A DNA stretch of 64,000 bases, taken from the NCBI GenBank assembly GCA_028716045.1, contig JAQUQO010000001.1, positions 128,942-192,941 of the forward strand, written 5' to 3'. Position 1 is the first letter of the stretch; the number at the start of each line of letters is the position of its first letter. The translations under genes and the position numbers were made by a program. Positions 20,079 to 59,173 of this stretch are shown one piece after another. Origin of the DNA: Patescibacteria group bacterium (GTDB taxonomy: Bacteria > Patescibacteriota > Patescibacteriia > JAQUQO01). The notes beneath the pieces were generated by a model. The model saw only the letters and a list, made by a program, of their open reading frames with translations. It did no database searches and had not been told where the DNA came from.

Positions 20079-20107
20079 ATTATAGCATATTTTAACAATT
20101 TTGTCAA
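20079..20107 (-). promoter_or_regulatory. sigma70 promoter, TTGACA-17-TATAAT (perfect consensus). The -35 box and spacer are identical to the promoter at 7307-7335.
   Basis: Minus-strand read: cttgacaaaattgttaaaatatgctataat. Confidence 0.6.
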
Positions 20108-20133
20108 GACCCGTCAGTCGCGACTGACGGGTC
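20108..20133. promoter_or_regulatory. perfect 26-bp palindrome GACCCGTCAGTCGCGACTGACGGGTC abutting the -35 box. Member of a three-copy family.
   Basis: It is its own reverse complement. The variant at 51730-51755 (gacccgtcggtcgcgaccgacgggtc) differs only at symmetric positions, i.e. compensatory changes. A degenerate copy sits at 52168-52193. Confidence 0.5.
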
Positions 20134-20397
20134 AAGCGGTTATAGCCGAAATTTGGCTAAGATTAAGGATATTTTTGCCATTAGTTTGTTTAAAAATAAA
20201 AAGACGGGCCTGTCGTTTTGGAAACAGGCCCGAGGGAAATAACGCCGGGAGAGGAGGAAAACCGGCGAATAAGGGGTTTTTGATGAGATTTTTTATCTCT
20301 TATTTGGGAGTATAACACAGATGTTAAATATAGTCAAGCGCTCGTTCGCAAGAGAGCATTGAAGGAAAAGCTTGATTATGTTAGAATATCTCTAACT

Positions 20398-35257: not shown

Positions 35258-35340
35258 GTCGTTGTAGCTCAAAGGCAGAGCACCCCGACAGCGCTAATGC
35301 TTAAACGGGGAGGTCGGGGGTTCAAGTCCCTCCAACGACC
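35258..35340 (+). tRNA. tRNA gene (83 nt, CCA not encoded) with a non-canonical 18-nt anticodon loop, consistent with an 11-nt insertion or intron. Anticodon undetermined.
   Basis: Acceptor gtcgttg/caacgac. U8, A14, GG18-19, A21. D-arm gctc/gagc. Anticodon stem ccccg/cgggg enclosing acagcgctaatgcttaaa. Variable loop aggtc. T-arm ggggg-ttcaagt-ccctc. Discriminator C. An intrinsic terminator follows. Confidence 0.6.
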
Positions 35341-37073: not shown

Positions 37074-37574
37074 TTAATTTCTCTTATCCGCCAATTCCAG
37101 CAAATTTTCCGGATTAGCCGAAGACCAAATCCAATCTTCGGGACGTTTGACGTATTGTTTTCTGACCGGGTTTTGTTCTATATAATTTACTTTCTGCAGA
37201 TAGAATTTTTCGTTTTCAATAAGTTCCGGCCAATTTTTCGGTTGCCAGAATTGATAAGTATCATTTTCTTTAAAAAGTTCAAGGACGCGAGGCTCGGTTT
37301 CTGATAGATTCTTCTTTAATTCTTTTGAAGTAAAAGTTTTAAAATCTCTTGTAAAACCCGCAAGATCACTATTCTCAGCTATAAGATGGATGTGATTAAG
37401 CATGAAGACCCAGGCGTATATTTTTAAACTTTTATTATTCTGGCAGTATTGCAGAGAATTAAGCAGGATATTCCAGCGGTCATATCTGTCAAAAAGGTAG
37501 TACCAACGTTTAACTGTAAAAGTTAGAAAATGTATTTTGTTTTTTAATTCTTTGCTGATGCGAGGCGATGGCAT
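37074..37574 (-). mobile_element. REP-associated tyrosine transposase (RAYT / IS200-IS605 TnpA-like HUH endonuclease)
   Basis: 166 aa. HUH motif in FMLNHIHLIAE. Conserved C-terminal Tyr region. Flanked on both sides by REP hairpins. Confidence 0.7.
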
Positions 37575-37604: not shown

Positions 37605-37678
37605 GGTTCAATCTGTAAGATTGAACCAACGGAAGGCTCTGCAAGAGCCGTAACTAGATATACGCTGTTATGTGCTGT
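37605..37678. repeat. REP copy 2 (ggttcaatct-gta-agattgaacc) followed by a second hairpin module, ggctctgcaagagcc-gtaacYagatatacgcYgttat
   Basis: The module at 37633-37678 recurs at 54995-55040 with about 90% identity. Confidence 0.6.
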
Positions 37679-37735
37679 AGTGAAAAGCAATAGCCGTCCC
37701 GAAGGGCGGCTATTATATTTTTGGTAATTTACTTT

Positions 37736-48412: not shown

Positions 48413-49294
48413 TTATTTTTTTTGACAATACTTCAAAACCATCACCCGCTCGCGGCCGCAGAGGTCTTTTTTTATTTGGACACGGTAATTTTTAGGGACA
48501 AGTTTTTTCAATCTCGCCGCTTGTTTCCAGCCGATTTCCAAGATAATAATTTGGGGCTGGCATTTGAGCAATTTTAATTGCGCGAAGAATTCACGGAATT
48601 TATCCAAGCCGTCCGGGCCGCCGTCAAGCGCTCCGCGCGGTTCGTATTTTAATCCAGGAAAGGCCATTTCTTTTTTGTTGAGATAGGGGAGATTGGCAAC
48701 GATAATAAAATTAGAATTAGGAATTAGGAATTTCCCTCGACCTGAGCTCGGGACGAAGGTTGAATTATGAATTAGTTCTAGTAAATCTCCTTGGAGAAAA
48801 GTAATTTGTTTTTCTAAGCCGTGGCGACCAGCGTTTTGGCGGGCAATTTTCAGAGTGCTGGCGGAAATGTCCGTGGCGTAATAATTTTTAAGGTCAGTAT
48901 TTTTGGCAATAGACACAATAATGGCGCCGGAGCCGGTGCCGATGTCAGCAATGGATTTTAATTTATATTTTTTAATATAGTTGATTGCTTCTTCAACTAA
49001 AGTTTCGGTTTCGGGGCGGGGGATGAGGACGTCTTTATTAACTTTAAAGTTTAATTTATAGAATTCTTGTTCCCCGACAAGATAAGCGATGGGTTCGTGT
49101 TTTTTCGCTCGCGCTGCCAGTTTTTTAAGTTTTTTTGCTTGCGAGACGGAAAGTTTTATTTCCGGATGCGCGTAAAGAAAAACGCGGTCTTTTTTCAGAA
49201 TGAATTGTAAAAGGACTTCCGTATCTAAAACGGGGGAGTAGGAGAATTTTTTCAGTTCAGTCGCGTATTTCTTAAGCGCTTGTTTGATAGTCAT
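48413..49294 (-). CDS. prmC: release factor glutamine N5-methyltransferase PrmC (HemK)
   Basis: 293 aa. SAM motif DIGTGSGAI. Substrate motif IVANLPY (NPPY-type). Adjacent to prfA. Confidence 0.8.
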   Translation of the reverse strand: MTIKQALKKYATELKKFSYSPVLDTEVLLQFILKKDRVFLYAHPEIKLSVSQAKKLKKLAARAKKHEPIAYLVGEQEFYKLNFKVNKDVLIPRPETETLVEEAINYIKKYKLKSIADIGTGSGAIIVSIAKNTDLKNYYATDISASTLKIARQNAGRHGLEKQITFLQGDLLELIHNSTFVPSSGRGKFLIPNSNFIIVANLPYLNKKEMAFPGLKYEPRGALDGGPDGLDKFREFFAQLKLLKCQPQIIILEIGWKQAARLKKLVPKNYRVQIKKDLCGRERVMVLKYCQKK

Positions 49295-49680: not shown

Positions 49681-50733
49681 TTAAACTTCCTGTGCTTTTA
49701 GCGCCTCAATTATCTGGTCCAATCCGCCGTCTAGAATAGTTTGGATATTGTGCCAGCTTTGTTTGAGGCGGTGGTCGGTAATTCTGTCTTGCGGGAAGTT
49801 GTAAGTGCGGATTTTGTCTCCGCGTTCGCCGCTACCGCCCTCTTTCCTTTGAGCGGCCAGTTCTTTCTGTCTTTTTTCTTCAGCCATAGCCAAAAGGCGC
49901 GAGCGCAAGATTTGCATGGCCCGTTCTCTGTTTTGCGATTGCGAACGCTCGTCTTGGCAGGAAGCGACGGTATTAGTCGGCAGGTGAGTGATGCGTACTG
50001 CCGAGTAAGTGGTATTAACGCTTTGGCCGCCGTGGCCGCCGGCGCAGAAAGTGTCTACACGCAAATCTTTCGGTTCAATTTTAAAATCAATTTCCTCGGC
50101 TTCGGGCAGGACGGCGACGGTGGCGGCGGAAGTGTGAATGCGGCCGCTTTTTTCGGTTTCCGGAACGCGCTGGACGCGATGTCCGCCCATTTCGTATTTC
50201 AGGTTGCCGTAAACGTCTTTGCCGCTGATGCTGAAAATAACTTCTTTAAATCCACCGATGCCGATGTTATTAGAAGAGAGTAGTTTGGTTTTCCAGCCCC
50301 TCTTTTCGGCATAGCGGGAGTACATGCGGAAAAGGTCGGCGGCGAAAAGCGCGGATTCGTCTCCGCCGGTGCCGGCGCGGATTTCCATAATGACATTCTT
50401 TTTATCCAAAGGATTTTTGGGTTTAAACGCCGTTTTTATTTCCGCTTCTATTTTTTCTTCATCTTTATTTAAAATTTCCAATTCTTCTTCGGCCAGCTTT
50501 TTCATTTCCGGTTCCTCGGATTCTTTGATTGTTTCCTCGGCGTCTTTAATTCCTTTTTTTATTTTATCCAATTTTTTTTTGAGCTCCGCGAATTCTCGGT
50601 ATTCGTCAAACTCTTGCGAGGCGGCTTTTAATTTTTTTGGGTCATTAATAACCAAGGGGTCGGTAAGGTCCTTTTCTAGTTGGCGGAATTTAACTACCGC
50701 TTCGTCTAATTTTTTTAGTATTTTTTCGTCCAT
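49681..50733 (-). CDS. prfA: peptide chain release factor 1
   Basis: 350 aa. GGQ motif. PxT-type tripeptide (QRVPETE). Adjacent to prmC. Confidence 0.9.
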
Positions 50734-50878: not shown

Positions 50879-51235
50879 TTAGCCCTCTTCTGTTTCCCGC
50901 ATTATTTTTCCAATCACACCCTCCATATTGTAAAAAATATCCAAGTTAGTAAATCGCAGAATTTTTAAGCCGGACTGTTTTAGATATTTTTCTCTCTCGG
51001 CATCTTTGATGATATTATCTTTGTCAAAATGTTGTCCCCCGTCAATTTCTATAATCAGTTTCTTTGTCGGGCAGTAAAAATCCACGATGTATTTTCCAAG
51101 GGGCTTTTGTCTGTAAAATTGTAAACCGTTTATTTGTTTATTTTTGATTTTACTCCACAAAATTATTTCCGTTTTAGTCATGTTGCCTCGCAGGGCCTTA
51201 GATGCGTTTTTAAGTTTAGGGCTATAATAGCGCAT
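50879..51235 (-). CDS. DUF559 / Vsr-like endonuclease-domain protein
   Basis: 118 aa. Conserved DUF559 core (LRGNMTKTEIILWSKIKNKQINGLQFYRQKPLGKYIVDFYCP...IEIDGGQH). Confidence 0.7.
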   Translation of the reverse strand: MRYYSPKLKNASKALRGNMTKTEIILWSKIKNKQINGLQFYRQKPLGKYIVDFYCPTKKLIIEIDGGQHFDKDNIIKDAEREKYLKQSGLKILRFTNLDIFYNMEGVIGKIMRETEEG

Positions 51236-51390: not shown

Positions 51391-51675
51391 CTACTTTTCG
51401 TTTTTAGCGGCTCTTTTGGCGGAACGGGCGGCGTGTTTGGCCTTTTTGCCTTTTCTGGTTTTGGAGGCGATTTCTTTCTTACCAGCTTTTTCTTTGAATT
51501 TTTCCACGCGCCTGGCAGTGTCAACAAGTTTCTGTTTGCCGGTGTAAAAAGGATGGCACGCCGAACAAAGCTCAACGTTAATTTCTTTTTGCGTGGAGCC
51601 GGTAATAAAAGAATGGCCGCAGGCGCAAGTCACCTTGGCGTCATTGAAATATTCAGGATGAATTCCTTTTTTCAT
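51391..51675 (-). CDS. rpmE: 50S ribosomal protein L31 (start trimmed to MKKGIHPEY)
   Basis: Zinc-ribbon CxxH/CxxC motifs (VTCACGHSF...[10 protein letters not shown]). Lys-rich C-terminal extension. The ORF-track 52-aa N-extension is rejected. Confidence 0.85.
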
Positions 51676-51729
51676 ATTGGCATTTAAAATTTTATAGTAT
51701 TCCCAGTGTATCACAGCCCGATTTTTTTG

Positions 51730-51755
51730 GCAAGACCCGTCGGTCGCGACCGACG
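51730..51755. promoter_or_regulatory. perfect 26-bp palindrome GACCCGTCGGTCGCGACCGACGGGTC (family copy 2), in the rpmE upstream region
   Basis: It is its own reverse complement. It sits between an rpmE-proximal ttgcca -35 box and a plus-strand TTGACC. Confidence 0.45.
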
Positions 51756-51840
51756 GGTCAGGGGCTTGACCTTTAATTAAATACATGTTAAGGTTAAAAG
51801 CGATGAGGATTTTACTTGTAGTACATTTCAAAATTTTAAA

Positions 51841-52113
51841 ATGAAAGAGGTGACACTAATGCCAAACAAAAATAAGGAAGAAGTTAACATTAATATCGAA
51901 TGTTGGGTAGACAGAGGGTTGATGTCAGATCAAGTCGATCAATTAAAGAAAAAATTGGTAGATGCAGCAGTAAGGGCTATTGGGCTCACCCCCAAACTTG
52001 ATCCAGGTGGAGACGTTAAAATCACTGTTCACTATGAAATTTATAGTGGCAGAGAGAAGCGGGAAAGAGTTTCGGGAGCAACATTTTTGGGGCTACAAGA
52101 AAAGCCAATATAA
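51841..52113 (+). CDS. hypothetical small protein
   Basis: 90 aa. SD gaaagaggtgacactaATG. Weak promoter TTGACC at ~51764. Confidence 0.4.
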
Positions 52114-52207
52114 CTAACCATATTTAAGCCGAAAGACAATTATGTCAAGTAGGCTTTTTTTGTCAAGACAAGCCAGTCGCGACCGACGGGTCTTGACAAG
52201 CCGAGGG

Positions 52208-52236
52208 TTGACAGAATACTCATGATTTGTTATATT
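52208..52236 (+). promoter_or_regulatory. sigma70 promoter, TTGACA-17-TATATT. Immediately upstream at 52135-52200 is a ttgtcaagac...gtcttgacaag palindrome array.
   Basis: ttgaca at 52208-52213. tatatt at 52231-52236. Upstream, ttgtcaagac-aagccagtcgcgaccgacgg-gtcttgacaag is a 10-bp perfect IR around the degenerate family palindrome. Confidence 0.5.
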
Positions 52237-52275
52237 ATTATGATGTAAATTAATAACAAGCAGGAGGATAAAGTA

Positions 52276-52593
52276 ATGGCCGAAACAGAGACCTTTAGAG
52301 TTATAAGTGCGTCTTCTTCTTATGGAGTCGTTGTGGTTGTTAGCCCCGAAGATGCTAAACCCGGAGATAAAGAAGCCAAATTTTTTCTTCGCAACCTTAA
52401 TGTGGGTATTAAAGATTTTGAACCAGTAACCGAAGATGTAGCCCTTGGCTATTTTAGCGGAATCGCGGATGGTCTGGGCCGTGGAAAGAAACCGGCAAAT
52501 CACTTCAATTCACTCAAAGAAGTAGCGGAGTGGGCTGATAAAGCCAACGAGCAAGCAATGAAGGAATTGATTCGGCGAGTAAAGGAAAGTTAA
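52276..52593 (+). CDS. hypothetical small protein
   Basis: 105 aa. SD caggaggataaagtaATG. Confidence 0.4.
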   Translation: MAETETFRVISASSSYGVVVVVSPEDAKPGDKEAKFFLRNLNVGIKDFEPVTEDVALGYFSGIADGLGRGKKPANHFNSLKEVAEWADKANEQAMKELIRRVKES

Positions 52594-52703
52594 AAGCAGC
52601 GGGCAAAAGAGGAGATGGCAAAGAAGTAAATTTCTCAAAAAATCCGTGGTTCAAAGAGCTACGGATTTTTTTTATTAATCTAAGTTGGATATTATTCAGA
52701 CCC

Positions 52704-52732
52704 TTGACTTATTTTATATGATGTGCTATAGT
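52704..52732 (+). promoter_or_regulatory. sigma70 promoter, TTGACT-17-TATAGT
   Basis: ttgact at 52704-52709. tatagt at 52727-52732. Confidence 0.5.
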
Positions 52733-52783
52733 ATTATACTATAAATTAAGTATAACCAATCAACTATTTAAGGAGAGCAGACA

Positions 52784-52972
52784 ATGGAGGACAATAAGAA
52801 GCCCTTTGTAACCGACAAGATTGCAGCTGGCTACATGATTCAGCGGGGCGGTAAAAATCATGATGGCGAATGGCTGACGCCTGAAGGCGAGTGGAGCGAA
52901 AGTGTTTTCGATGCGGCTACCTGGCCGACCAAGAAGGCAGCAAGGAAAGCCTTGAAAACTTTGTTCGGATGA
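52784..52972 (+). CDS. hypothetical small protein
   Basis: 62 aa. SD aaggagagcagacaATG. Terminator at 53005-53040 (gacgaccc-accaacgc-ggggtcgtc followed by T-run). Confidence 0.4.
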   Translation: MEDNKKPFVTDKIAAGYMIQRGGKNHDGEWLTPEGEWSESVFDAATWPTKKAARKALKTLFG

Positions 52973-53082
52973 ATCTCGTAAAAGATTTGCTTCTACGGAA
53001 GCTATGACGACCCACCAACGCGGGGTCGTCTTTTTCTTTTCAAAAAATAACAATATTACGACTTGTTATTTTTTGGGCGTAT

Positions 53083-53793
53083 TTATTTTTGAGCCCGCAG
53101 AAGGCTAAGCTTTAATTCTTTTTTGTAATCAGAAGAACACTTTTTTAAAACAGAATCCAAGATATTTTCAAATACATTATCTAAACCGTATAGTCTAATT
53201 AATTTTTTCTTTAACTTATCTAAATTTTGCTTGATATGATTATTTTTGTCAAACAAAATATCGCAGCAAATCAAATTTGAAAAGAAGGGTCTCGCTACCA
53301 ATACATTATTGATGTAATTTTTGTATGTCCGTATGAAGATTTTTTTGTATTCTTTAACATTTATAGCCTCGTCAACAAGTAAGCCGTTGATTGTTTTTAT
53401 TTTCAAAGGTTTAATATCTCCATGGTGGCTAGAACCTTTCCAAAGTTTAGCATTCAGATTACAAAATTTTTCAAAATAATCCCAAGTACAAAAACCCATG
53501 TTAATTTTTACATTATTTATCTTCTGATCGCACCAAAAAAGAACGCCCTTTTTTAAAAGTTCTAATTTAGCGTCAACAAAATATTTTGAATTGTTAAAGA
53601 AACTTTCTTTTTTAATCAGACCGACGTTTTTCTTTTTAATAATAAAAATTACATCAATATCAGATTTTGCCGTGACAGAAAAGAATTTTCCGTGAACCAT
53701 TGAGCCGGTAAGTAAAATGCCCTCAAAAATATGTTTATCAAAGTAGAAAAATAATTTTTTAATAATCCCTAATCTTTTTCCGGTTTCGTTCAT
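53083..53793 (-). CDS. minimal Pol-beta-superfamily nucleotidyltransferase (ANT/Lnu-like or TA-type NTase), within an AT-rich island
   Basis: 236 aa. NTase signature LTGSMVHGKFFSVTAKSDIDVIFI, i.e. GS-x(9-13)-D-x-D. Very AT-rich codon usage, local GC about 20-28% against ~42% elsewhere. Confidence 0.6.
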   Translation of the reverse strand: MNETGKRLGIIKKLFFYFDKHIFEGILLTGSMVHGKFFSVTAKSDIDVIFIIKKKNVGLIKKESFFNNSKYFVDAKLELLKKGVLFWCDQKINNVKINMGFCTWDYFEKFCNLNAKLWKGSSHHGDIKPLKIKTINGLLVDEAINVKEYKKIFIRTYKNYINNVLVARPFFSNLICCDILFDKNNHIKQNLDKLKKKLIRLYGLDNVFENILDSVLKKCSSDYKKELKLSLLRAQK

Positions 53794-53805
53794 AATGATA
53801 GCTTA

Positions 53806-54234
53806 CTAAAATTTAGCCATTTCTTTTGATAAGAGTTGCTCAAAGCTTTTCATCTCGTTAGAAAATTTGTGCAAATTCCCATAGTTATCCGAAATGATTC
53901 TTGAATAATTAAGCAACTTTTTTGATAGTTCGTCTGAAATGAGTTGTTCTTTCACGGTTTCCCAAATTTCATCATTGCACCAATCTTGTTTGCCCATATT
54001 TATCCATTTAACATGATATTTTTGTATAAATTTTCCGTCTTTCAAAACTAATGCGTCCCATTCAGAAGATATCGGCCGGTCAGCAGGGAATGGTTTTTTA
54101 TCAATTAACACTTGTTTGACTACGCGATGGGCTTTGGTTGTATAGTCAAAAGAAATAGCCTCCTTTTCATTCACGGAAACTGATATAAAAAACATCGTGC
54201 TGGGCGTGGGGTTGTAATCTACTTCAATATCCAT
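53806..54234 (-). CDS. hypothetical protein cotranscribed upstream of the NTase (candidate partner/antitoxin)
   Basis: 142 aa with a 12-nt gap to the NTase gene. No HEPN Rx4-6H motif and no obvious HTH. Confidence 0.45.
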   Translation of the reverse strand: MDIEVDYNPTPSTMFFISVSVNEKEAISFDYTTKAHRVVKQVLIDKKPFPADRPISSEWDALVLKDGKFIQKYHVKWINMGKQDWCNDEIWETVKEQLISDELSKKLLNYSRIISDNYGNLHKFSNEMKSFEQLLSKEMAKF

Positions 54235-54347
54235 AATTTTTGGTTAAAATTTTTTATTTTTGGCGTCAGTATTGACATTTTTGGAATAATGTGCTACACT
54301 GTGATGGTATCCAGTAAGTATACTAGTATAAAAAGGAGGATTAAAAA

Positions 54348-54530
54348 ATGAAGCAAAGAATGTTCGTTTTTATCTTAGGCGTATTTTTATGTGGGGTGTC
54401 TGGTTATATGCCGGAACAATTTTCTGGGTTTTTGTGCTTTCTCGGTTTCACGGCCGTTTTGACGGCTGTATTACCAAGGAGGGTAAACAGGGCCCATGAA
54501 GACTGGCGTGCCAACTACCGACCGGGGTAA
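54348..54530 (+). CDS. small hydrophobic membrane protein
   Basis: 60 aa. SD aaaaggaggattaaaaaATG. Promoter TTGACA-17-TACACT at 54270-54298. Terminator at 54559-54595. Confidence 0.35.
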   Translation: MKQRMFVFILGVFLCGVSGYMPEQFSGFLCFLGFTAVLTAVLPRRVNRAHEDWRANYRPG

Positions 54531-54588
54531 AACCCTTGTCTGAAAGTGCGTAAACTACGAAGCTGGGTCGATTCTTGACCCAGCTTTT

Positions 54589-54924
54589 TTATTTTAGTAC
54601 ATCTAACATCTCTAATAATTCTTGCTTGATTTTGTCTGGCGGAGTTGTGCTTTTGTCGGGATATTGCCGTTTTAAAGCGTAAAGTTTTTGTTTTAAAGTT
54701 TCCAATTTTTCCATAACGGCATTATATTTTTCAGAACCGAGTTCATCTTCGGCCTTTTTGCCAGACAGATATGTTTCTATGACAAAAACACGACTGCCAA
54801 AACACGCCAGCCAAGAATTTGCCGTTTCTTGAAATTCCTTTTCAATTTTTTCTGGAGACCCGGAAATCATATCTTTGGCTTCGTCAACTCGACTTTTGGG
54901 ATGTTCCTTTTCAAATTTTTCCAT
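54589..54924 (-). CDS. hypothetical protein
   Basis: 111 aa, helical, charged. Confidence 0.4.
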   Translation of the reverse strand: MEKFEKEHPKSRVDEAKDMISGSPEKIEKEFQETANSWLACFGSRVFVIETYLSGKKAEDELGSEKYNAVMEKLETLKQKLYALKRQYPDKSTTPPDKIKQELLEMLDVLK

Positions 54925-54971
54925 ATTTTTTAATTTTTATTATTCCACATAACGTTTGCGTGTATCTGATG

Positions 54972-55040
54972 CCCCGCTAAGCGGGGTATGGGTGGAGGCT
55001 CTGCAAGAGCCGTAACCAGATATACGCCGTTATATGATGT
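54972..55040. repeat. hairpin ccccgctaagcgggg plus the second copy of the ggctctgcaagagcc-gtaaccagatatacgccgttat module
   Basis: 54995-55040 matches 37633-37678. The ccccgc..gcgggg hairpin matches 49418-49433. Confidence 0.55.
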
Positions 55041-55070
55041 ATGTTTTTCTTTTTCGGCCCGTTAGGGTTT

Positions 55071-55103
55071 GTTTTTGTATAACAAACGAATTCGATTTTT
55101 CAA
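55071..55103. repeat. left 33-bp terminal inverted repeat (TIR-L) of a ~2.1 kb cassette
   Basis: tttttgtataacaaacgaattcgatttttcaat matches the reverse complement of 57116-57148 at 32 of 33 positions. Contains the palindromic core cgaattcg. Confidence 0.7.
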
Positions 55104-55164
55104 TTTTAGCGAAGGGGCAGAGGGGATAGGGGTGAATGCCCCATAGCTAAATTTGTTGATTAGT

Positions 55165-55902
55165 TTATTTCGCCTTCATCCACAAAGCATTAAAAAATTT
55201 TATCAATATAGCTGAATCTTTGCTATTTAATTTTGCTACTAATGCTGGACTGTTGGATGCGGCATCTTTGATAGAAGGACCGAGAATATAACCTATATCA
55301 TCAATAATTATACAGCGATCATGTAAGTCGCTATACTTTTTATCGTTAAATTTTTTATATTCTTTTTTAAAACGGACAACGCGGCTGTCGAAGGATCCTC
55401 TTTTTTGGCCATAAATTAGTTTAATTTCTAGATTTTTTGGTATACTATCTAATACATTATCAAAGATTGTTTCATCAACCCACGAATCCGCCACCATGAC
55501 CCTTAGCTTTGTATTAGCGAATATGCTACGCAAGAATTTATCAAAAGTATGCGTACTTTTTTTGTCAAAAATATAAAGCTGGCTAGAGGTTGATAATATA
55601 CTATTTTGTTCAAAAATAGTTATATCGGTGAGGTGTTGGATACCAGATTCATTTACGAGACATATTCCAGGTCTGACTGGGTCTACCCAGCCCTGCTGTT
55701 GGGCGCGGTTGTAAAAAACCGGATTGTAAGATTTTTTTGTTAGCACTTTCGGCCAGTGACTGCGAATATCTGAAATAGTGATTTCATGTGATACCCGGCC
55801 TTTTGCACAGTGCGCAGCAATTATCAAAAACATCTGCTGCCCGCTCAAATCTTTAAGCGGGAATGTTTTTAAGAATGCTTTTAGGTTTTTAGAGAAGTTC
55901 AT
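55165..55902 (-). CDS. winged-helix-like DNA-binding domain fused to a PLD-like (H-x-R-x4-D-x6-G) putative nuclease domain
   Basis: 245 aa. The N-terminal ~80 aa are homologous to the C-terminal domain of the 160-aa neighbour (L-S/T-G...F-L/V-I/L-x-A-H/Y...W.K...Y..RA...GW-V/L-D...G.Y.LT). The C-terminus has KLRVMVAD...LHDRCIIIDDIGYILGPS, which matches PLD HKD-motif spacing with Arg in place of Lys. Confidence 0.5.
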   Translation of the reverse strand: MNFSKNLKAFLKTFPLKDLSGQQMFLIIAAHCAKGRVSHEITISDIRSHWPKVLTKKSYNPVFYNRAQQQGWVDPVRPGICLVNESGIQHLTDITIFEQNSILSTSSQLYIFDKKSTHTFDKFLRSIFANTKLRVMVADSWVDETIFDNVLDSIPKNLEIKLIYGQKRGSFDSRVVRFKKEYKKFNDKKYSDLHDRCIIIDDIGYILGPSIKDAASNSPALVAKLNSKDSAILIKFFNALWMKAK

Positions 55903-55911
55903 AGGTCGTGT

Positions 55912-56346
55912 TTAGAAAATTTCATCCCAGCGTGCAGTGAGGTGATAAGAACCATTTTTTGTGGCATCAAGCCAGCCATTCTCTTTTGCCCTGGTGCCAT
56001 ATATACCAGTTGTCAGTTTCCCCCCCAACAGTCTACTGTGTTTGTTCCAGCAGGTTTTTACATCTTCGCTCGTCACATCCAACTTCTTTTTACTTTTTGA
56101 AAGATATGCCACAACCAGTACAAATCTTTTAGGGCCAGTTAATCCTTTTCCGTATTCTTTAAAAAATGCCCTCGAATTTTGGTTGAAATTTATTTTTGAT
56201 TTTTGAGTATTGGCTAAAGCTGGTTTGTGTGGTTGGCGTGTCGTGGTATTATTTTTATAATTTAATTTTTCTAAATTAGAACGACATTCTTCGGCGAGTG
56301 TAATAATTTGTGTAAGCTTGTTACATATGTTTTGTATTTTCATACA
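55912..56346 (-). CDS. stand-alone paralog of the winged-helix-like DNA-binding domain (start trimmed to MKIQNICNKL)
   Basis: C-terminal domain LTGPKRFVLVVAYLSKSKKKLDVTSEDVKTCWNKHSRLLGGKLTTGIYGTRAKENGWLDATKNGSYHLTARW aligns with the N-terminus of the 245-aa protein. The untrimmed ORF overlaps the upstream gene by 38 nt. Confidence 0.5.
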   Translation of the reverse strand, partial: CMKIQNICNKLTQIITLAEECRSNLEKLNYKNNTTTRQPHKPALANTQKSKINFNQNSRAFFKEYGKGLTGPKRFVLVVAYLSKSKKKLDVTSEDVKTCWNKHSRLLGGKLTTGIYGTRAKENGWLDATKNGSYHLTARWDEIF

Positions 56347-56356
56347 GGTTGCGAAG

Positions 56357-56572
56357 TTAAATATGATATTTATAAATAGTGTCATCTTTTTCACGTTTAA
56401 TTTTTTCCCTTCTGAGCAAATAGAGTAAATTTACTCTGATGTCTTCGGGTTTTTCTTTATAACCAAACTTATCCTTAAGCTCTTTTTGGATTTCTTCGGC
56501 AGCTTTTGAATGTTTGCTAATCACCTTCAATATTTTTTCGGCAAGACTGACTTTTTGTTGTTTCTTTTTCAT
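56357..56572 (-). CDS. small winged-helix / HTH protein
   Basis: 71 aa. Pattern SLAEKILKVISKH..AEEIQKEL...RVNLLYLLRREKIKRE..DTIYKYHI is typical of a small wHTH regulator. Confidence 0.45.
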   Translation of the reverse strand: MKKKQQKVSLAEKILKVISKHSKAAEEIQKELKDKFGYKEKPEDIRVNLLYLLRREKIKREKDDTIYKYHI

Positions 56573-56590
56573 AATATATAATATTTAAAA

Positions 56591-56962
56591 TTATCTACCA
56601 TAAACCCACTTCCCGTCGTTTTTTTTGCGACCCAAAAGTTTTTTTTGTACAAGCCCTATCACTACACCTGATAATGTAGTAGTGGGATAAATATAGCCCA
56701 TTTGTTCAAGTTTAGATGCGATTTCTCCAAGAGTTTTAGGTTTAGAAAAAAAGTTTTCTTCTCGTAGCTCAACAATAAGATCTGAAGCCGCGCGTCTTTT
56801 ATTTTCATCCCGTTTCTTTACGATAGACTTGGTTGCCTTTGTTCTTATTTCTCGTACTACAGATGAACGTTCAAAGTCGGATAGTATGGCGGCCAACTCT
56901 TCTTTTGTTCCTTCTATTGTTATAGATGATCCCGTCTTAGATTTAATGATTGCTTTTGGCAT
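56591..56962 (-). CDS. hypothetical protein with a C-terminal winged-helix-like domain (first gene of the operon)
   Basis: 123 aa. C-terminal KTLGEIASKLEQMGYIYPTTTLSGVVIGLVQKKLLGRKKNDGKWVYG. Confidence 0.45.
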   Translation of the reverse strand: MPKAIIKSKTGSSITIEGTKEELAAILSDFERSSVVREIRTKATKSIVKKRDENKRRAASDLIVELREENFFSKPKTLGEIASKLEQMGYIYPTTTLSGVVIGLVQKKLLGRKKNDGKWVYGR

Positions 56963-56999
56963 AGATTTTAAGTTTTAGTTACTTATTATTAATAATCTT

Positions 57000-57055
57000 A
57001 TTGTATATTATTGCTAAAATTTTGTCAAGTGTCCGCAATATATTTAGCAATAATA
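57000..57055 (-). promoter_or_regulatory. sigma70 promoter (TTGACA-17-TACAAT) overlapped by a perfect 13-bp inverted-repeat operator
   Basis: Minus-strand read: TTGACA (plus 57023-57028), 17 nt, TACAAT (plus 57000-57005). IR arms tattattgctaaa (57006-57018) and tttagcaataata (57043-57055). One arm lies in the -35/-10 spacer, a classic autorepressor layout. Confidence 0.6.
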
Positions 57056-57115
57056 GTAGTATTTAAAAAATGTCTGCCAATATTTTATTGGTAGACATTT
57101 TTATCCCCCTATTAA

Positions 57116-57148
57116 ATTGAAAAATCGAATTCGTTTGTTATATAAAAA
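57116..57148. repeat. right 33-bp terminal inverted repeat (TIR-R)
   Basis: attgaaaaatcgaattcgtttgttatataaaaa. Its reverse complement equals 55071-55103 with one mismatch. Confidence 0.7.
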
Positions 57149-57349
57149 TGTCGCCGTCTGGCGAAAAGGAAAAGTATATTTCATATAACTACCTATATCC
57201 CAACTTGTTGTTTTTTGCGCTAAGATATGATAAAATTTTTAGTAAATTGAGGTTATACCCCCAAGGGGTATAACCTCCCGTATTTTATTTACAGTAATAC
57301 TTTCACGAACATATTTATTTTATCCCATTCACCTCAAAAATTCAACCCA

Positions 57350-57378
57350 TTGCCAAGATTTTTGCCCTATGTTATAAT
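57350..57378 (+). promoter_or_regulatory. sigma70 promoter, TTGCCA-17-TATAAT, for rpsB-tsf. Followed by a ~120-nt leader with hairpin atcccga-gca-ttcgggat.
   Basis: ttgcca at 57350-57355. tataat at 57373-57378. Leader hairpin at 57443-57460. Confidence 0.5.
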
Positions 57379-57502
57379 CGGTATTACTTATTAAATCTCT
57401 CACATTTTAGGATTATTTGGCGGCCTTGTCTCATCCCGAGCATTCGGGATTGGGATTTGCCAAATAAGATGACTAAAATGGAGGCCTAAAAGGAAAAAAT
57501 TT

Positions 57503-58237
57503 ATGACCAAGATTCCATCTCTTTTAGAGATGCTCAAAGCGGGCGTGCATTTCGGACACCAAGCGTCGCGCTGGCATCCTAAAATGGGCCAATACATTTT
57601 TGGCCAAAGAAACGGTGTCAATATTATTGATTTGGAGAAGACCCAGGTTAAACTTGAGGAAGCTCTGAATTTTCTCAAAGAAACTGCCCAAAAAGGCGGT
57701 GTCATTTTATTTTTAGGCACCAAAAAGCAGGCGCAGGCCCTGGTGAAAAAAGCCGCCGAGGATTGCGGTATGCCTTATGTGACCGAGCGCTGGCTGGGTG
57801 GAACAATTACCAATTTCAGCGTTATTTCCCGTTTGCTCAAAAAATTGAAAAAGGTGGAAGCCGAGCGCGTTTCCGGCGAGTTGGGAAAATACACCAAGAA
57901 AGAGCAGTTGGTTATTAATCGCGAAGCGGAAAAAATGGATAAGGTTGTTGGTGGTATTAAAAATTTAGAAAAAATTCCCACGGCTTTATTTATAGTTGAC
58001 GTCAGAAAGGAAGAAACCGCCATCAGGGAAGCCAGAGCTAAAAATATCCCGATAGTCGCGGTTTGCGACACTAATGTCAATCCGGAAATGGCTGATTATC
58101 CGATTCCGGCCAATGATGATGCCAGCAAGTCAATTGAACTTATTTTAAATTTAGCGTCGGCGGCGGTCAAAGAAGGCAAAGGAGCTGTTGTCAAAGAAGA
58201 AAAGAAGGAAGAAAAAGTCAAAAAAGAAAAAAAGTAA
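57503..58237 (+). CDS. rpsB: 30S ribosomal protein S2
   Basis: 244 aa. MLKAGVHFGHQASRWHPKM. Lys/Glu-rich C-terminal tail. Confidence 0.9.
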   Translation: MTKIPSLLEMLKAGVHFGHQASRWHPKMGQYIFGQRNGVNIIDLEKTQVKLEEALNFLKETAQKGGVILFLGTKKQAQALVKKAAEDCGMPYVTERWLGGTITNFSVISRLLKKLKKVEAERVSGELGKYTKKEQLVINREAEKMDKVVGGIKNLEKIPTALFIVDVRKEETAIREARAKNIPIVAVCDTNVNPEMADYPIPANDDASKSIELILNLASAAVKEGKGAVVKEEKKEEKVKKEKK

Positions 58238-58357: not shown

Positions 58358-59173
58358 ATGTCCGTTGACCAAAATATTGTCAAACTTCGCGAATTAACCG
58401 GCGCGGGAATTTTGGATTGTAAAAAGGCGCTGGAAGAATCCGGCGGGGACGTGGATAAGGCACAGGAAATTTTAAGAAAGAAAGGAATCGCCAAAGCCGC
58501 CAAAAGAGCCGAGAGAGAAGCCAAAGAAGGCATTGTCAAAGTCGGAACTAATGGCGATAAGACCACGGGGTATATGGTGGAATTTAATTCCGAAACCGAT
58601 TTTGTCGCCCGCAACGAAAAATTTTTGGGATTTACCGAAGAAGTTTTTAATCTTTTTAAAAATAAAGAGCCGCAAGATTTAGATTCTTTATTTAACTTGC
58701 CGCTGGCTGACGGCAATACGGTAAAGGATTCTCTCGGCAGTTTGAGCGGTGTTATCGGCGAAAAATTGGACATCAAAAGATGCGCTCTTGTCTCCGGCGG
58801 CACAGTCGCCGCTTATTCCCATCTGGGCGGGAGAATCGGCGTGCTCGTGGCGCTGGATAAATCCGGAGAGGATGAGCTGGCTTATGACGTGGCTATGCAT
58901 ATTGCCGCTTCCAATCCTAAATATCTAAGCCCGGAGAATGTTCCAGCCGAGGAAGTTGCCAAAGAAAAAGAAATTTATCGCGAGCAATTGAAAAATGAAG
59001 GCAAGCCGGAGAATATCATTGATAAAATTTTGGCGGGGAAGATGGAAAAATATTACGGAGAAATTTGTCTGCTCAATCAAGTATTTATCAAAAATGAAGA
59101 TTTGACTGTCGGCCAGCTGCTTGACGGCCGGGGAGTCAAAATTAAGGATTTTTTCCGTTTTAGTTTAAATTAA
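58358..59173 (+). CDS. tsf: elongation factor Ts
   Basis: 271 aa. N-terminal UBA-like LRELTGAGILDCKKAL. Conserved EF-Ts core. Confidence 0.9.
   Translation: MSVDQNIVKLRELTGAGILDCKKALEESGGDVDKAQEILRKKGIAKAAKRAEREAKEGIVKVGTNGDKTTGYMVEFNSETDFVARNEKFLGFTEEVFNLFKNKEPQDLDSLFNLPLADGNTVKDSLGSLSGVIGEKLDIKRCALVSGGTVAAYSHLGGRIGVLVALDKSGEDELAYDVAMHIAASNPKYLSPENVPAEEVAKEKEIYREQLKNEGKPENIIDKILAGKMEKYYGEICLLNQVFIKNEDLTVGQLLDGRGVKIKDFFRFSLN

Follow-up and report, generated by a model that had tools for sequence, protein, structure and literature searches.

The gap between the divergent genes rpmE and rpsB in this Patescibacteria genome is probably a patchwork of accessory DNA whose core is a horizontally spread, modular four-gene conflict or defence cassette. 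Three of the cassette's products are small winged-helix proteins; in the fourth, o245, a winged helix is fused to a PLD-fold domain. Features of the gap are collected in Table 1; the window is the whole 64,000-nt stretch of DNA that we analyzed.

Table 1. Features of the rpmE–rpsB gap (window coordinates)
Feature	Position	Strand	Description
o90, o105, o62	51841..52972	+	Three small ORFs with promoter-like sites; near-average GC
o236	53083..53793	-	236 aa; possible Pol-beta-type nucleotidyltransferase-like orphan
o142	53806..54234	-	142 aa; 12 nt upstream of o236
o60 unit	54272..54587	+	Promoter-like site, RBS, ORF and terminator-like hairpin; GC about 46%
o60 promoter-like site	54272-54300	+	
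o60 ORF	54348-54530	+	60 aa, hydrophobic; AAGGAGG ribosome-binding site
o60 terminator-like hairpin	54559-54587	+	
o111	54589..54924	-	111 aa; outside the inverted repeat
Dispersed repeat	54996..55041		GGCTCTGCAAGAGCC hairpin, then GTAAC and GATATACGCNGTTATATG
Left arm of inverted repeat	55019..55106		Core 55072-55106
Operon o123-o71-o143-o245	55165-56962	-	Tight four-gene cassette
o245	55165..55902	-	Winged helix (about residues 1-95) and PLD-fold domain (about 105-245)
o143	55912..56343	-	Small protein; stand-alone copy of the winged helix from the o245 N-terminus at residues 51-138
o71	56357..56572	-	71-aa BlaI/MecI-type winged-helix DNA-binding domain without C-terminal domain
o123	56591..56962	-	Conserved first gene of the operon
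Operon promoter-like site	57000..57028	-	TTGACA, 17 nt, TACAAT; 11/12 matches
Palindrome, 17+17 nt	57066..57102		AAAAATGTCTGCCAATA ttt TATTGGTAGACATTTTT
Right arm of inverted repeat	57114..57199		Core 57114-57148
Hairpin	57249..57277	+	13-bp stem and T-rich tail; between right arm and rpsB promoter (57350-57378)

Composition and setting of the gap

The first-pass annotation described an AT-rich island of 20–30% GC at 53041–57150. The anomaly is genuine, and the stretch is compositionally foreign-looking DNA. Its GC content is 34.1% versus 42.0% window-wide, the lowest of all 4.1-kb stretches in the window (mean 0.419, s.d. 0.021; runner-up 0.388), and both of the lowest-GC 1-kb stretches (53051, 28.6%; 56251, 30.4%) fall inside it. 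The degree, however, had been overstated. Values of ≈28–31% are confined to two sub-blocks (53041–54250, 30.2%; 56151–57400, 31.1%), whereas 54251–56150 has 38.4% GC with individual 300-nt windows up to 44%; the lowest 300-nt window of the region has 26%. Low GC also continues to about 57400, past the proposed right limit of 57150. The flanks do sit near the window average, as had been proposed (rpmE and rpsB, 43% each; 51841–53040, 41.3%). GC3 is lowest in the seven minus-strand island genes (0.27–0.37, median 0.30); the 50 genes outside the island have a median of 0.47 (Mann-Whitney p = 2.5e-7), and just three of them fall within the island range. The dinucleotide signature is most deviant at 53–58 kb, with a distance delta* of 83.6 (mean 38.7, s.d. 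14.9). The proposed shift toward Lys, Asn, Ile and Phe is strong for o236 and o71, with Lys/Asn/Ile/Phe/Tyr fractions of 0.46 and 0.42, but the remaining island proteins (0.28–0.37) overlap the range of the window (0.30 ± 0.04). Low GC could partly stem from Lys-rich DNA-binding proteins. The view that uncharacterized genes concentrate in this foreign-looking stretch is supported.

In the nearest relatives examined, rpmE and rpsB remain neighbors and the genes between them differ. The closest genome found (L001, ribosomal protein S2 57% identical) keeps the order prmC-prfA-rpmE-rpsB-tsf with three genes, one of them PP2C-like, in the gap. The L007 gap holds one gene of 161 aa and another for a repeat-rich protein of 519 aa without assigned function, and in L010 prfA directly abuts rpsB. 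None of the island genes was found in L001–L014, nor, by tblastn, were o90, o105 and o62, which had been taken as native flank. These three ORFs are called in the public record and have no family matches; o90 is flanked by GC-rich palindromes at 51722–51759 and 52155–52192. Because they too are lineage-specific, the accessory gap exceeds the AT-rich block and spans the whole interval of 51.7–57.4 kb. At least three unrelated modules make up the block itself, which is thus a patchwork and not a single inserted island with defined ends. It has no integrase, flanking tRNA or direct repeats, and the target-site duplications anticipated at about 53040 and 57150 were not found, the shared words being AT-rich 9–10-mers within chance expectation.

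Horizontal acquisition, the central proposal of the earlier annotation, is well supported for the four-gene cassette, as detailed below; the synteny relatives (S2 ≤57%) are too distant to date it or to offer a clean empty site. For o236, o142 and o111, "inserted" is therefore indistinguishable from "ancestral and lost elsewhere". It could be argued that the AT-rich genes are native, fast-evolving and lineage-specific, shaped by AT mutation pressure, weak selection, low expression and Lys/Asn-rich products. The two homologues of o236, the small o142 family, the absence of integrase, tRNA or direct repeat, the distance of the relatives and further short low-GC patches elsewhere in the window would all fit. 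We nevertheless regard this explanation as very unlikely, given that GC3 is depressed beyond amino-acid-driven positions, that the dinucleotide signature deviates as well and that, for the cassette, 50–84% identical proteins occur in Acidobacteria and Gammaproteobacteria MAGs when the nearest S2 is only 57% identical.

Passenger genes

Four genes of the block, o236, o142, o111 and o60, are separate lineage-restricted passengers. The most AT-rich of all, o236 (GC 28%, GC3 0.295), is weakly supported as a Pol-beta nucleotidyltransferase-like protein: G30-S31 and D45-x-D47 are invariant within its three-member family, and its AF2 model (pLDDT 70.8) retrieves kanamycin nucleotidyltransferase ANT(4') (E 3e-4 to 9e-4), Tam41 and LinB as top Foldseek matches, at low TM values of 0.3–0.48. 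There is no Pfam or PDB match by sequence, and profile searches of Pfam, NCBIfam, PHROG and PADLOC lend no support to a nucleotidyltransferase. Just two homologues were found among 5.8 billion proteins. Both seem to belong to bacteria with similarly small genomes, and the one whose neighborhood could be read has no o142 partner beside it. The o142 family comprises 44 clusters of proteins about 145 aa long, out of 1.84 billion representatives, and matches no Pfam or PDB entry consistently; neither the Rx4-6H motif of HEPN proteins nor the GS/DxD motif of nucleotidyltransferases is present in the o142 sequence. The "NTase pair" of the earlier annotation thus shrinks to o236, as o142 has no assignable function.

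The protein o111 has no significant family match and was not found adjoining cassette homologues in other genomes. The o60 ORF is not called by the gene callers of the public record and has no homologues in profile libraries; we infer that it is coding solely from its promoter, ribosome-binding and terminator signals.

A four-gene operon within an inverted repeat

The four genes o123, o71, o143 and o245 lie 18, 13 and 9 nt apart, which points to one operon; its promoter-like site precedes the start codon of o123 by 38 nt. Promoter and genes are bracketed exactly by inverted arms of 88 nt that are 77% identical to each other and share a 35-nt core (34/35) that gave 0 chance matches in shuffles and has only two copies in the window. 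The label "TIR cassette" therefore describes something real if a terminal inverted repeat was meant, but Pfam, NCBIfam, PHROG and PADLOC profile searches detect no Toll/interleukin-receptor domain. Just upstream of the operon promoter, a 94% complementary palindrome is a candidate operator or insulating hairpin. The dispersed repeat, which covers the outer end of the left arm, shares 46 nt at 91% identity with 37634–37679, a copy that sits 60 nt from an IS200/RAYT-like gene.

Such an arrangement could mean that the cassette is a non-autonomous mobile insertion, with the arms as terminal inverted repeats, a transposase encoded elsewhere in the genome acting in trans and the four genes as cargo. 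Besides the exact enclosure by the arms, such an origin is favored by the recurrence at 37.6 kb, next to the IS200/RAYT-like gene, of part of the left-arm region, and by a weak inverted repeat of 19 nt around the homologous cassette in L018. We consider this origin unlikely, however. IS200/RAYT enzymes use hairpins instead of long terminal inverted repeats, no transposase lies in or beside the cassette and a search for target-site duplications gave none. L019, L021, L029, L032, L034, L036 and L038 lack the arms, and other cassettes cease to resemble this one at the DNA level inside the arms, at about 55152 and 57029, with the similarity to L036 and L038 ending at the operon promoter-like site. 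The repeat core, read outward, is also promoter-like. A mobile origin would in any case be compatible with a defence role, as it concerns only how the cassette arrived.

In the first protein, o123, a basic linker connects a KAxIKSKTGxxITIEG beta-hairpin/helix module at the N terminus to a winged-helix-like domain at the C terminus. Nearly all of its 125 homologues (52–84% identity) are exactly 123 aa long, and hhalign (96–98%) shows homology of its C-terminal half with other small proteins of such cassettes and with the Ymh-family HEPN N-terminal domain. The o71 family profile matches BlaI (1sd4, E 7e-4, residues 1–69 on 1–69) and MecI, and o71 scores E 1e-3 against NCBIfam BlaI, under the cut-off; its counterparts in L018, L019, L036 and L038 are 65–80% identical. 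The relation of o143 to o245 is evident by phmmer (E 9e-11) and, for the N-terminal domain, by hhalign (98.9% probability, 85 columns), and o143 is conserved directly upstream of o245 in L018, L019, L031 and L032. None of o123, o71 and o143 has a PADLOC match.

The predicted effector o245

More than 200 full-length homologues of o245 exist, and alignment A1 reveals invariant residues in the PLD domain: H194-D195-R196, D139, D148, D152, G208, P209 and K212. Pfam PLDc_2 is matched by 9 of 54 family members and Regulator_TrmB by one. The motif H-D-R differs from the catalytic H-x-K of PLD nucleases in that Arg replaces Lys; acidic residues after beta-2 and HDR before beta-5 fit the description of MIT_C/PB-PLD1 (PMC12065111). 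The solved HDR-type domain, that of MITD1, binds membranes without shown catalysis. In Foldseek searches with the AF2 model (pLDDT 87.4), the C-terminal domain matches NucT, Nuc, Zucchini, PLD3 and MITD1, whereas the whole protein best matches TrmBL2 (E 1e-10), a non-enzymatic archaeal chromatin/DNA-binding protein, and also TrmB. PADLOC PDC-S05 matches residues 105–233 (E 5e-15), a match that spans only the C-terminal 40% of the model, and NsnC matches with E 6e-4. One PDC-S05 representative cut T7 and T5 plating about 1000-fold in E. coli (bioRxiv 10.1101/2024.09.26.614923). That protein is described with a RhuM domain, and a RhuM protein of L021 is unrelated to o245.

Spread of the cassette and exchange of effectors

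Patescibacteria, Acidobacteria/Terriglobales and a Sulfuricaulis MAG carry full-length relatives of both o245 (46–74% identity) and o123 (52–84%). Horizontal spread is well supported, as these identities stand against only 57% for the nearest S2, and the same values suggest that the o123 and o245 phylogenies would be incongruent with ribosomal-protein trees. Cassette GC lies under that of the flanks in eight of nine other loci (49% versus 59% in Acidobacteria, for example). The cassette was not found in plasmid, phage or IMG/VR collections, which thus point to no vehicle.

The o123/o71/o143/o245 order is shared by L018 and L019, with identities of 35–37%, 71–80%, 59–65% and 73–74%, respectively. 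Elsewhere, o123 and o71, both small winged-helix proteins, recur in other phyla as a conserved head pair, behind which the effectors are interchangeable: PLD-HDR proteins, Ymh or AF_1680-type HEPN proteins and Mrr-type endonucleases, each with an N-terminal winged-helix domain. Protein lengths are 123-106-160-256 in L031 and L032 (Acidobacteria) and 123-71-111-266 in L036, whose 266-aa protein joins another N-terminal domain to an HDR-type PLD domain (hhalign 95.5%). L038 encodes 123-71-Ymh HEPN-Mrr_cat and L040 encodes 123-88-AF_1680, with the RNACGH motif present. A stand-alone copy of the effector N-terminal domain is often encoded directly upstream, with solo 82- and 88-aa proteins matching that of Ymh at 97–98%; o143 mirrors o245 in the same way. 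Ymh is a HEPN family typical of R-M operons (PMC3710099). R-M methyltransferases, two of them fused to LexA-S24, divergently adjoin the cassette in L019, L036 and L038, and Mrr, an SLFN-like helicase fused to an S24 peptidase domain, Fic/RhuM and serine recombinases are also nearby.

These neighborhoods bear on a further reading, in which the four proteins are DNA-binding regulators or nucleoid-associated proteins for the control of gene expression or chromatin, and the PLD-fold domain of a TrmB/TrmBL2-like o245 binds a small ligand or mediates oligomerization. The whole-length TrmBL2 and TrmB matches, the Regulator_TrmB hit, the resemblance of o71 to a repressor DNA-binding domain, winged-helix-like domains in all four proteins and the Lys-to-Arg change agree with it. 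Regulation as the sole role is nonetheless rather improbable, given that HEPN and Mrr endonuclease proteins take the o245 position behind o123-o71 elsewhere and that the cassette has R-M and other defence genes as neighbors instead of metabolic operons. The invariance across phyla of the PLD-domain His, Asp, Arg and Lys and of several further Asp residues, and the patchy cross-phylum distribution at GC lower than the host, also argue against it.

Proposed mechanism

Under the favored conflict or defence reading, accessory DNA would have accumulated in the variable gap between rpmE and rpsB. BlaI-like o71, o123 or both may repress the operon or sense a trigger. With a single H-x-R...D half-site, o245 would form an active site only upon dimerization, a requirement likened to that of the single-motif PLD nucleases Nuc, NucT and Zucchini. 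Sharing its winged helix but lacking an enzyme domain, o143 could keep o245 in an inactive hetero-complex or, alternatively, compete with it for the same nucleic-acid ligand. Infection or another disturbance would then release o245, and nucleic acid would be cut. No described defence system matches the whole o123-o71-o143-o245 operon. Overall, the cassette gives the impression of an anti-virus or toxin-type module that is so far undescribed, not of one that serves ordinary growth.

Composition and setting of the island

The block at 53041-57150, between rpmE and rpsB, has a GC content of 34.1%, compared with 42.0% for the whole window. It ranks lowest among all 4.1-kb stretches (mean 0.419, sd 0.021; next lowest 0.388), and both of the lowest-GC 1-kb stretches of the window fall within it. 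GC3 in its seven minus-strand genes ranges from 0.27 to 0.37 (median 0.30), relative to a median of 0.47 in 50 non-island genes (Mann-Whitney p = 2.5e-7), which makes the deviation more than an effect of Lys-rich proteins. The dinucleotide signature distance delta* also reaches its window maximum at the island (83.6 vs 38.7 +/- 14.9). GC content and codon usage thus bear out the anomaly reported in the first-pass annotation, which had the direction right but overstated the degree: rather than 20-30% GC across the island, the drop is uneven, with 30.2% at 53041-54250, 38.4% at 54251-56150 (where 300-nt windows reach up to 44%), and 31.1% at 56151-57400. The shift toward Lys, Asn, Ile, and Phe that it described in the island proteins is marked in o236 and o71 (ORFs are named by their length in amino acids) and not in the remaining proteins. 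Taken by itself, an AT-rich accessory patch or genomic island is ordinary.

The stretch at 34-39 kb ranks as the window's second most atypical by GC and dinucleotide signature. A tRNA is located at 35258-35340 (+; Rfam, 51.5 bits), in which the anticodon-loop region measures 18 nt instead of 7, suggesting an 11-nt insert or intron; ARAGORN reports no tRNA anywhere in the window.

To place the island in context, we sought synteny relatives with ribosomal protein S2, the rpsB product, in GTDB species representatives and JGI metagenomes. No close relative was found by S2, the best having 57% identity among the GTDB representatives and 49% in the JGI metagenomes. The best relative, L001, keeps the order DUF3048-prmC-prfA ... 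rpmE | rpsB-tsf, but its rpmE-rpsB gap contains three genes, a PP2C-like one of 369 aa and two small ones, and a RelA/SpoT-like gene and a 427-aa gene lie between prfA and rpmE. The gap in L007 (Saccharimonadales) holds a 161-aa gene and a 519-aa repeat-rich protein without assigned function, and in L010 rpsB is directly abutted by prfA. Searches of the relatives L001-L014 recovered none of the window's eleven gap ORFs. The content of the gap is therefore lineage-specific, and the junction is a conserved breakpoint that carries different genes in each lineage. L001, L007, and L010 keep rpmE or prfA beside rpsB without the island but share only 41-57% S2 identity with the window, so the comparison gives no date for the acquisition. 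The accessory gap here spans 51.7-57.4 kb and exceeds the AT-rich block.

Among the hallmarks of a classical genomic island, atypical composition is present, and an integrase, a flanking tRNA, and direct repeats are absent. Profile searches found no recombinase- or integrase-like ORF in the gap, which also has no tRNA (the only one in the window lies at 35.3 kb), and no significant direct repeat or att site was found at the island borders. The target-site duplication envisaged at 53040 and 57150 did not materialize, as only chance-level AT-rich words occur there or outside the inverted-repeat arms described below. No Rfam family matches across 51600-57550, even at E values up to 1.

Two further features were observed nearby. 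The DUF559 gene between prfA and rpmE, which has a Vsr-like endonuclease fold and a GC content of only 35%, is missing at that position in L001 and L007 and is probably another small accessory insertion, just outside 53041-57150. A GC-rich palindrome, TTTTTTTGGCAAGACCCGTCGGTCGCGACCGACGGGTC, occurs three times, at 51722-51759 and 52155-52192, on either side of o90, and at 20099-20134, and has the look of a family of REP-like or terminator hairpins in this genome.

Genes and repeats in and around the accessory gap
Feature	Position	Strand	Description or basis
prmC	48413-49294	-	ORF calls, public record
prfA	49681-50733	-	ORF calls, public record
DUF559 endonuclease-like gene	50879-51235	-	Pfam E 4e-34
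rpmE	51391-51675	-	ORF calls, public record
o90	51841-52113	+	Small ORF
o105	52276-52593	+	Small ORF
o62	52784-52972	+	Small ORF
o236	53083-53793	-	Likely NTase-like
o142	53806-54234	-	Small unnamed family
o60	54348-54530	+	ORF with promoter-like site and hairpin
o111	54589-54924	-	ORF
Inverted-repeat arm	55019-55106		88 nt, 77% identity between arms
o245	55165-55902	-	Winged helix and PLD fold
o143	55912-56343	-	Copy of o245 N-domain
o71	56357-56572	-	BlaI/MecI-type winged helix
o123	56591-56962	-	Cassette head gene
Inverted-repeat arm	57114-57199		As above
rpsB	57503-58237	+	ORF calls, public record
tsf	58358-59173	+	ORF calls, public record

The left part of the island

The first-pass annotation recognized a nucleotidyltransferase (NTase) pair in o236 and o142. 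o236 matches no profile in Pfam, NCBIfam, PHROG, or PADLOC and no Pfam or PDB sequence, and it has only two homologs among 5.8 billion proteins (54% and 48% identity). All three sequences share the motif L28-T-G-S31 ... D45-I-D47, which fits the hG[GS] ... [DE]h[DE]h motif of Pol-beta NTases. An AF2 model computed from these sequences (pLDDT 70.8; residues 117-167 unmodelled) has as its best Foldseek matches the kanamycin nucleotidyltransferase ANT(4') (6p01, 1kny), Tam41, and LinB, with E values from 3e-4 to 2e-3 and low TM scores (0.3-0.48). The GS...DxD motif of o236 and, in the model, an NTase alpha/beta core with a helical C-domain resemble ANT(4') and other two-domain Pol-beta NTases, although the fold match is weak, the model is of moderate confidence, and a sequence-profile match is absent. 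We found no pointer to aminoglycoside resistance. Overall, o236 is likely, rather than demonstrably, NTase-like.

No such features are seen in o142, which belongs to a small unnamed family (44 clusters) without a consistent Pfam or PDB match and has neither a HEPN (Rx4-6H) nor an NTase motif in its sequence; of the proposed pair, only o236 is likely NTase-like. An NTase-HEPN toxin-antitoxin pair was also considered and rejected, since o142 carries neither a HEPN motif nor a HEPN family match and the two genes are not kept together: P0123, the o236 homolog with a readable neighborhood, lies on a small-genome-type contig and has no o142-like neighbor. The other homolog is on a 2.2-kb contig that cuts off its flanking genes. 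No relatives of o111 were found. In the o60 unit (54272-54587, +), a promoter-like site close to consensus and a strong AAGGAGG, placed 8 nt ahead of the ATG, precede the ORF, and a terminator-like hairpin with a 13-bp stem follows it; the GC content of 46% stands out within the AT-rich block. The 60-aa ORF, uncalled in the public record, has two hydrophobic segments and may encode a small membrane protein or be a type-I-toxin-like gene.

A four-gene operon with a duplicated N-domain

The minus-strand operon o123-o71-o143-o245, hereafter the cassette, follows a near-consensus promoter at 57028-57000, and its genes are separated by 18, 13, and 9 nt. A candidate operator for the winged-helix proteins is the 17+17-nt palindrome at 57066-57102, which precedes the -35 box by 38 nt.

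o123 has 125 homologs (52-84% identity), nearly all exactly 123 aa long, and consists of a conserved N-terminal beta-hairpin/helix module followed by a C-terminal winged-helix-like domain. o71 is a BlaI/MecI-type winged helix alone: its residues 1-69 align to residues 1-69 of BlaI (profile against PDB, E 7e-4) and also to MecI, and its NCBIfam BlaI match falls below the cut-off. The protein ends at residue 71 and has no BlaI/MecI C-terminal dimerization/cleavage domain, and there is no BlaR-like gene nearby. Residues 51-138 of o143 copy the N-domain of o245 (phmmer E 9e-11; hhalign 98.9%), so that the two proteins mirror one another. By hhalign, no relationship is detectable between the o123-type and o143-type winged helices or between either and o71.

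o245 joins a winged helix to a PLD-fold domain

More than 200 full-length homologs of o245 (46-74% identity) were found, including in MAGs labelled Acidobacteria and Terriglobales. H194-D195-R196, D139, D148, D152, G208, P209, and K212 are invariant in the family alignment, and 90% or more of the sequences retain D201. Pfam PLDc_2 is matched by 9 of 54 family members. The canonical H-x-K-x4-D motif is absent from the family, the Lys being replaced by Arg (H-D-R-x4-D). PDB sequence searches were uninformative for o245, as for o236, o142, and o123. In the AF2 model of o245 (pLDDT 87.4), a winged helix at the N-terminus is followed by a long helix and an alpha/beta domain of seven strands. This C-domain has the PLD alpha/beta fold, with Foldseek matches to Nuc, NucT, FAM83, Zucchini, PLD3, F13, and MITD1 (NucT, Nuc, Zucchini, PLD3, and F13 at probability 1.00, TMt up to 0.70).

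Single-motif PLD nucleases superpose on the C-domain (NucT 6ehi, TM 0.70, rmsd 3.8 A; Nuc 1byr, TM 0.69) and, like o245, have a single half-site on each chain, implying an active site formed by a dimer. Nuc, NucT, and Zucchini differ from o245 in using H-x-K-x4-D rather than H-D-R-x4-D, in sharing only 8-14% identity with it, and in lacking its DNA-binding N-domain. Over the whole length, Foldseek finds TrmBL2 (the best match, E 1e-10) and TrmB, which have the same layout of winged helix, long helix, and PLD-fold C-domain but share 12-13% identity with o245 and have a different genomic context. The C-domains of TrmB proteins serve in sugar binding or oligomerization and are missing the HDR and Asp set.

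The variant motif is that of the MIT_C/PB-PLD1 subclass, which includes MITD1 and the C-terminus of some Menshen NsnC and BrxL proteins and is characterized by an acidic residue after strand 2 and an H-D-R before strand 5 (PMC12065111). Both traits are found in o245, with D143/E144 after strand E134-142 and H194-D195-R196 before E197-200; MITD1 (2ymb) is among its Foldseek matches, and a PADLOC model of Menshen NsnC matches it weakly (E 6e-4). o245 differs in having no Pfam MIT_C match and no inactive-PIN domain, and no NsnA/NsnB or BREX genes were found near it. We know of no HDR-type PLD domain for which catalysis has been demonstrated.

Two PADLOC models of the candidate defense gene PDC-S05 match residues 105-233 of o245 (E 5e-15 and 4e-13). 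The match is partial (model positions 169-286 of 306, or 158-281 of 285), and the winged-helix N-domain is o245's own. In PADLOC, PDC-S05 counts as a single-gene candidate; o245, by contrast, belongs to a conserved operon of 3-5 genes, and PADLOC has no match for o123, o71, o143, or other neighbors. One PDC-S05 representative, reported with a RhuM domain, protected Escherichia coli from T7, T5, and T4 (bioRxiv 10.1101/2024.09.26.614923). A relationship between o245 and RhuM was rejected (hhalign probability 0.8%).

The first-pass annotation had named this operon a TIR cassette. If a Toll/interleukin-receptor domain was meant, no ORF supports it by profile (Pfam, NCBIfam, and PADLOC) or by fold, the o245 model being a winged helix with a PLD domain; the term may have stood for terminal inverted repeat.

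A constant head with exchangeable effectors across phyla

Homologous cassettes occur in other genomes and phyla, and their gene orders, together with hhalign comparisons, reveal a modular architecture. The C-terminal half of o123, the extra 106-117-aa proteins, and the N-domain of Ymh form one family (96-98%); ahead of HEPN effectors, the solo proteins of 82 and 88 aa duplicate the Ymh N-domain (97-98%). The rule that emerges is a constant head, o123 and usually o71, behind which come one or more effectors bearing a winged-helix N-domain, each often preceded by a stand-alone copy of its own N-domain. In L034, the 186-aa protein upstream of the o245 homolog (5428-5988) opens with an o123-like motif, ARIKIDVSAGILEVEGDE, and its C-terminal end is o143-like by eye, which would make it an o123-o143 fusion; hhalign with this single sequence confirmed neither part.

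Gene orders of cassette homologs in other genomes (protein lengths in aa)
Locus	Order	Remarks
L019/L020	124-71-143-245	Gene order as in the window
L018	124-79-111-145-245-254	254 is a Ymh HEPN protein
L031/L032/L033 (Acidobacteria)	123-106-160-256	Gene calls in L031: 123-109-256
L029	119-108-82-240-246	240, Ymh HEPN; 246, o245-like; large serine recombinase adjoins
L034	186-246	
L021	125-90-117-246	
L036/L037	123-71-111-266	266, other N-domain and 'ELHDRYIIAD' PLD domain (hhalign 95.5%)
L038/L039	123-71-236-458-168	236, Ymh HEPN; 458, DUF8426+Mrr_cat
L040 (Sulfuricaulis MAG)	123-88-244-160	244, Pfam AF_1680 with RNACGH motif

The cassette neighbors are typical of defense islands. Methyltransferases lie divergently adjacent in L019, L036, and L038, two of them fused to LexA-S24, and come with an HTH_3 gene and a putative endonuclease; other neighbors include Mrr, an SLFN-like helicase fused to an S24 peptidase domain, Fic/RhuM, MazG, and serine recombinases. 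Fused LexA DNA-binding and/or S24 peptidase domains are carried by an N6/N4 methyltransferase in L019 (5400-6818), a C5 methyltransferase in L036 (7247-8824), and the SLFN-like helicase in L021 (4787-6793), architectures that suggest self-cleaving, damage-responsive control of restriction-modification (R-M) or defense genes.

Ymh is a HEPN family that occurs in R-M operons, and HEPN, REase, and PLD effectors have N-terminal modules in common (Anantharaman et al. 2013, PMC3710099). The cassettes of L018, L029, and L038, beside R-M genes, match that setting, and AbiJ-like architectures share the cassette logic of one N-terminal module combined with HEPN, Mrr-type REase, or PLD effectors. The stand-alone N-domain copies and the constant o123-o71 head, however, are missing from that description.

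In eight of nine other loci the cassette is AT-richer than its flanks (for example, 49% vs 59% and 32% vs 41% GC), tracking host GC. The proteins closest to the window o123 have 76-84% identity, with 62% to the Acidobacterial copy, and the closest relatives of the window o245, in L018/L019, have 74%; the difference between 84% and 74% suggests that the cassette has recombined internally. No vehicle for the cassette emerged: searches of 72,556 plasmids and 50,697 phages gave no match to o245, and its family profile found none in IMG/VR.

An inverted repeat encloses the cassette

The two arms of an inverted repeat enclose exactly the cassette promoter and its four genes. Their 35-nt core matches at 34 of 35 positions (0 expected by chance), includes CGAATTCG, and has only two copies within the 64-kb window. 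DNA similarity to the cassettes of L018, L019, L036, and L038 stops at ~55152 and ~57029, between the arms, and those loci have no such repeat, save a weak 19-nt pair in L018. Because the repeat is missing from homologous cassettes, the arms appear to be a genome-specific repeat and not the ends that accompany the cassette elsewhere. Of the features of a mobile insertion cassette, terminal inverted repeats are present, whereas a target-site duplication, a cognate transposase (none lies inside the arms), and, within the 64 kb, additional copies of the ends are absent. The segment 54996-55041, which overlaps the left arm at its outer end, has a second copy at 37634-37679; an IS200/RAYT-like ORF of 166 aa lies 60 nt from that copy. 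The arms may be transposon ends, or else a split palindrome or duplicated spacers that bear promoters.

The IS200/RAYT-like ORF itself (37074-37574, -) matches Pfam Y1_Tnp at E 2e-4 (21.8 bits against a cut-off of 23) and has HxH and YxxxQ-like motifs; the recurring segment 60 nt upstream of it contains a hairpin.

Implications

Horizontal acquisition was proposed for the whole island; it has good support in the case of the cassette, whereas for the other parts it is plausible, though unproven. We infer that the cassette is a defense, abortive-infection, or toxin-type module, in which o245 would act as a dimeric nuclease gated by o143, and o71 and o123 would regulate or sense. These inferences are tempered by the lack of demonstrated catalysis among HDR-type PLD domains, by the best whole-protein structural analog, TrmBL2, being a non-enzymatic DNA binder, and by the operon matching no described system. 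Our literature search found no paper describing the operon, and the family appears undescribed as far as available libraries and papers show.

A broader reading, which we put forward tentatively and consider rather doubtful, is that o123-o71-headed operons are widespread, undescribed modular immune or abortive-infection systems with a constant pair, swappable tethered effectors, and decoy gating. If so, the effectors would be an 'HDR' PLD enzyme, HEPN RNases, or an Mrr endonuclease, tethered by a winged helix, each of them controlled by a free-standing decoy of its N-terminal domain. Operons of this kind are present in Patescibacteria, Acidobacteria, Gammaproteobacteria, and probably further phyla.

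The family is a reasonable candidate for experiments, and its clear design, with a constant head, swappable nuclease-type effectors, and decoy copies of the effectors' targeting domains, makes it a good candidate for defense screening. Should o245 prove active, it would provide the first enzymatic function for the HDR (MIT_C-like) PLD branch, to which human MITD1 and the BrxL C-terminus belong; being evidently under selection, such a bacterial member would offer a tractable way into this variant. Patescibacteria have tiny genomes and few recognized defense systems. That a conserved cassette adjoins R-M genes in several of these bacteria, and occurs in free-living phyla as well, points to a layer of their immunity that has gone unrecognized and to gene flow into these episymbionts.
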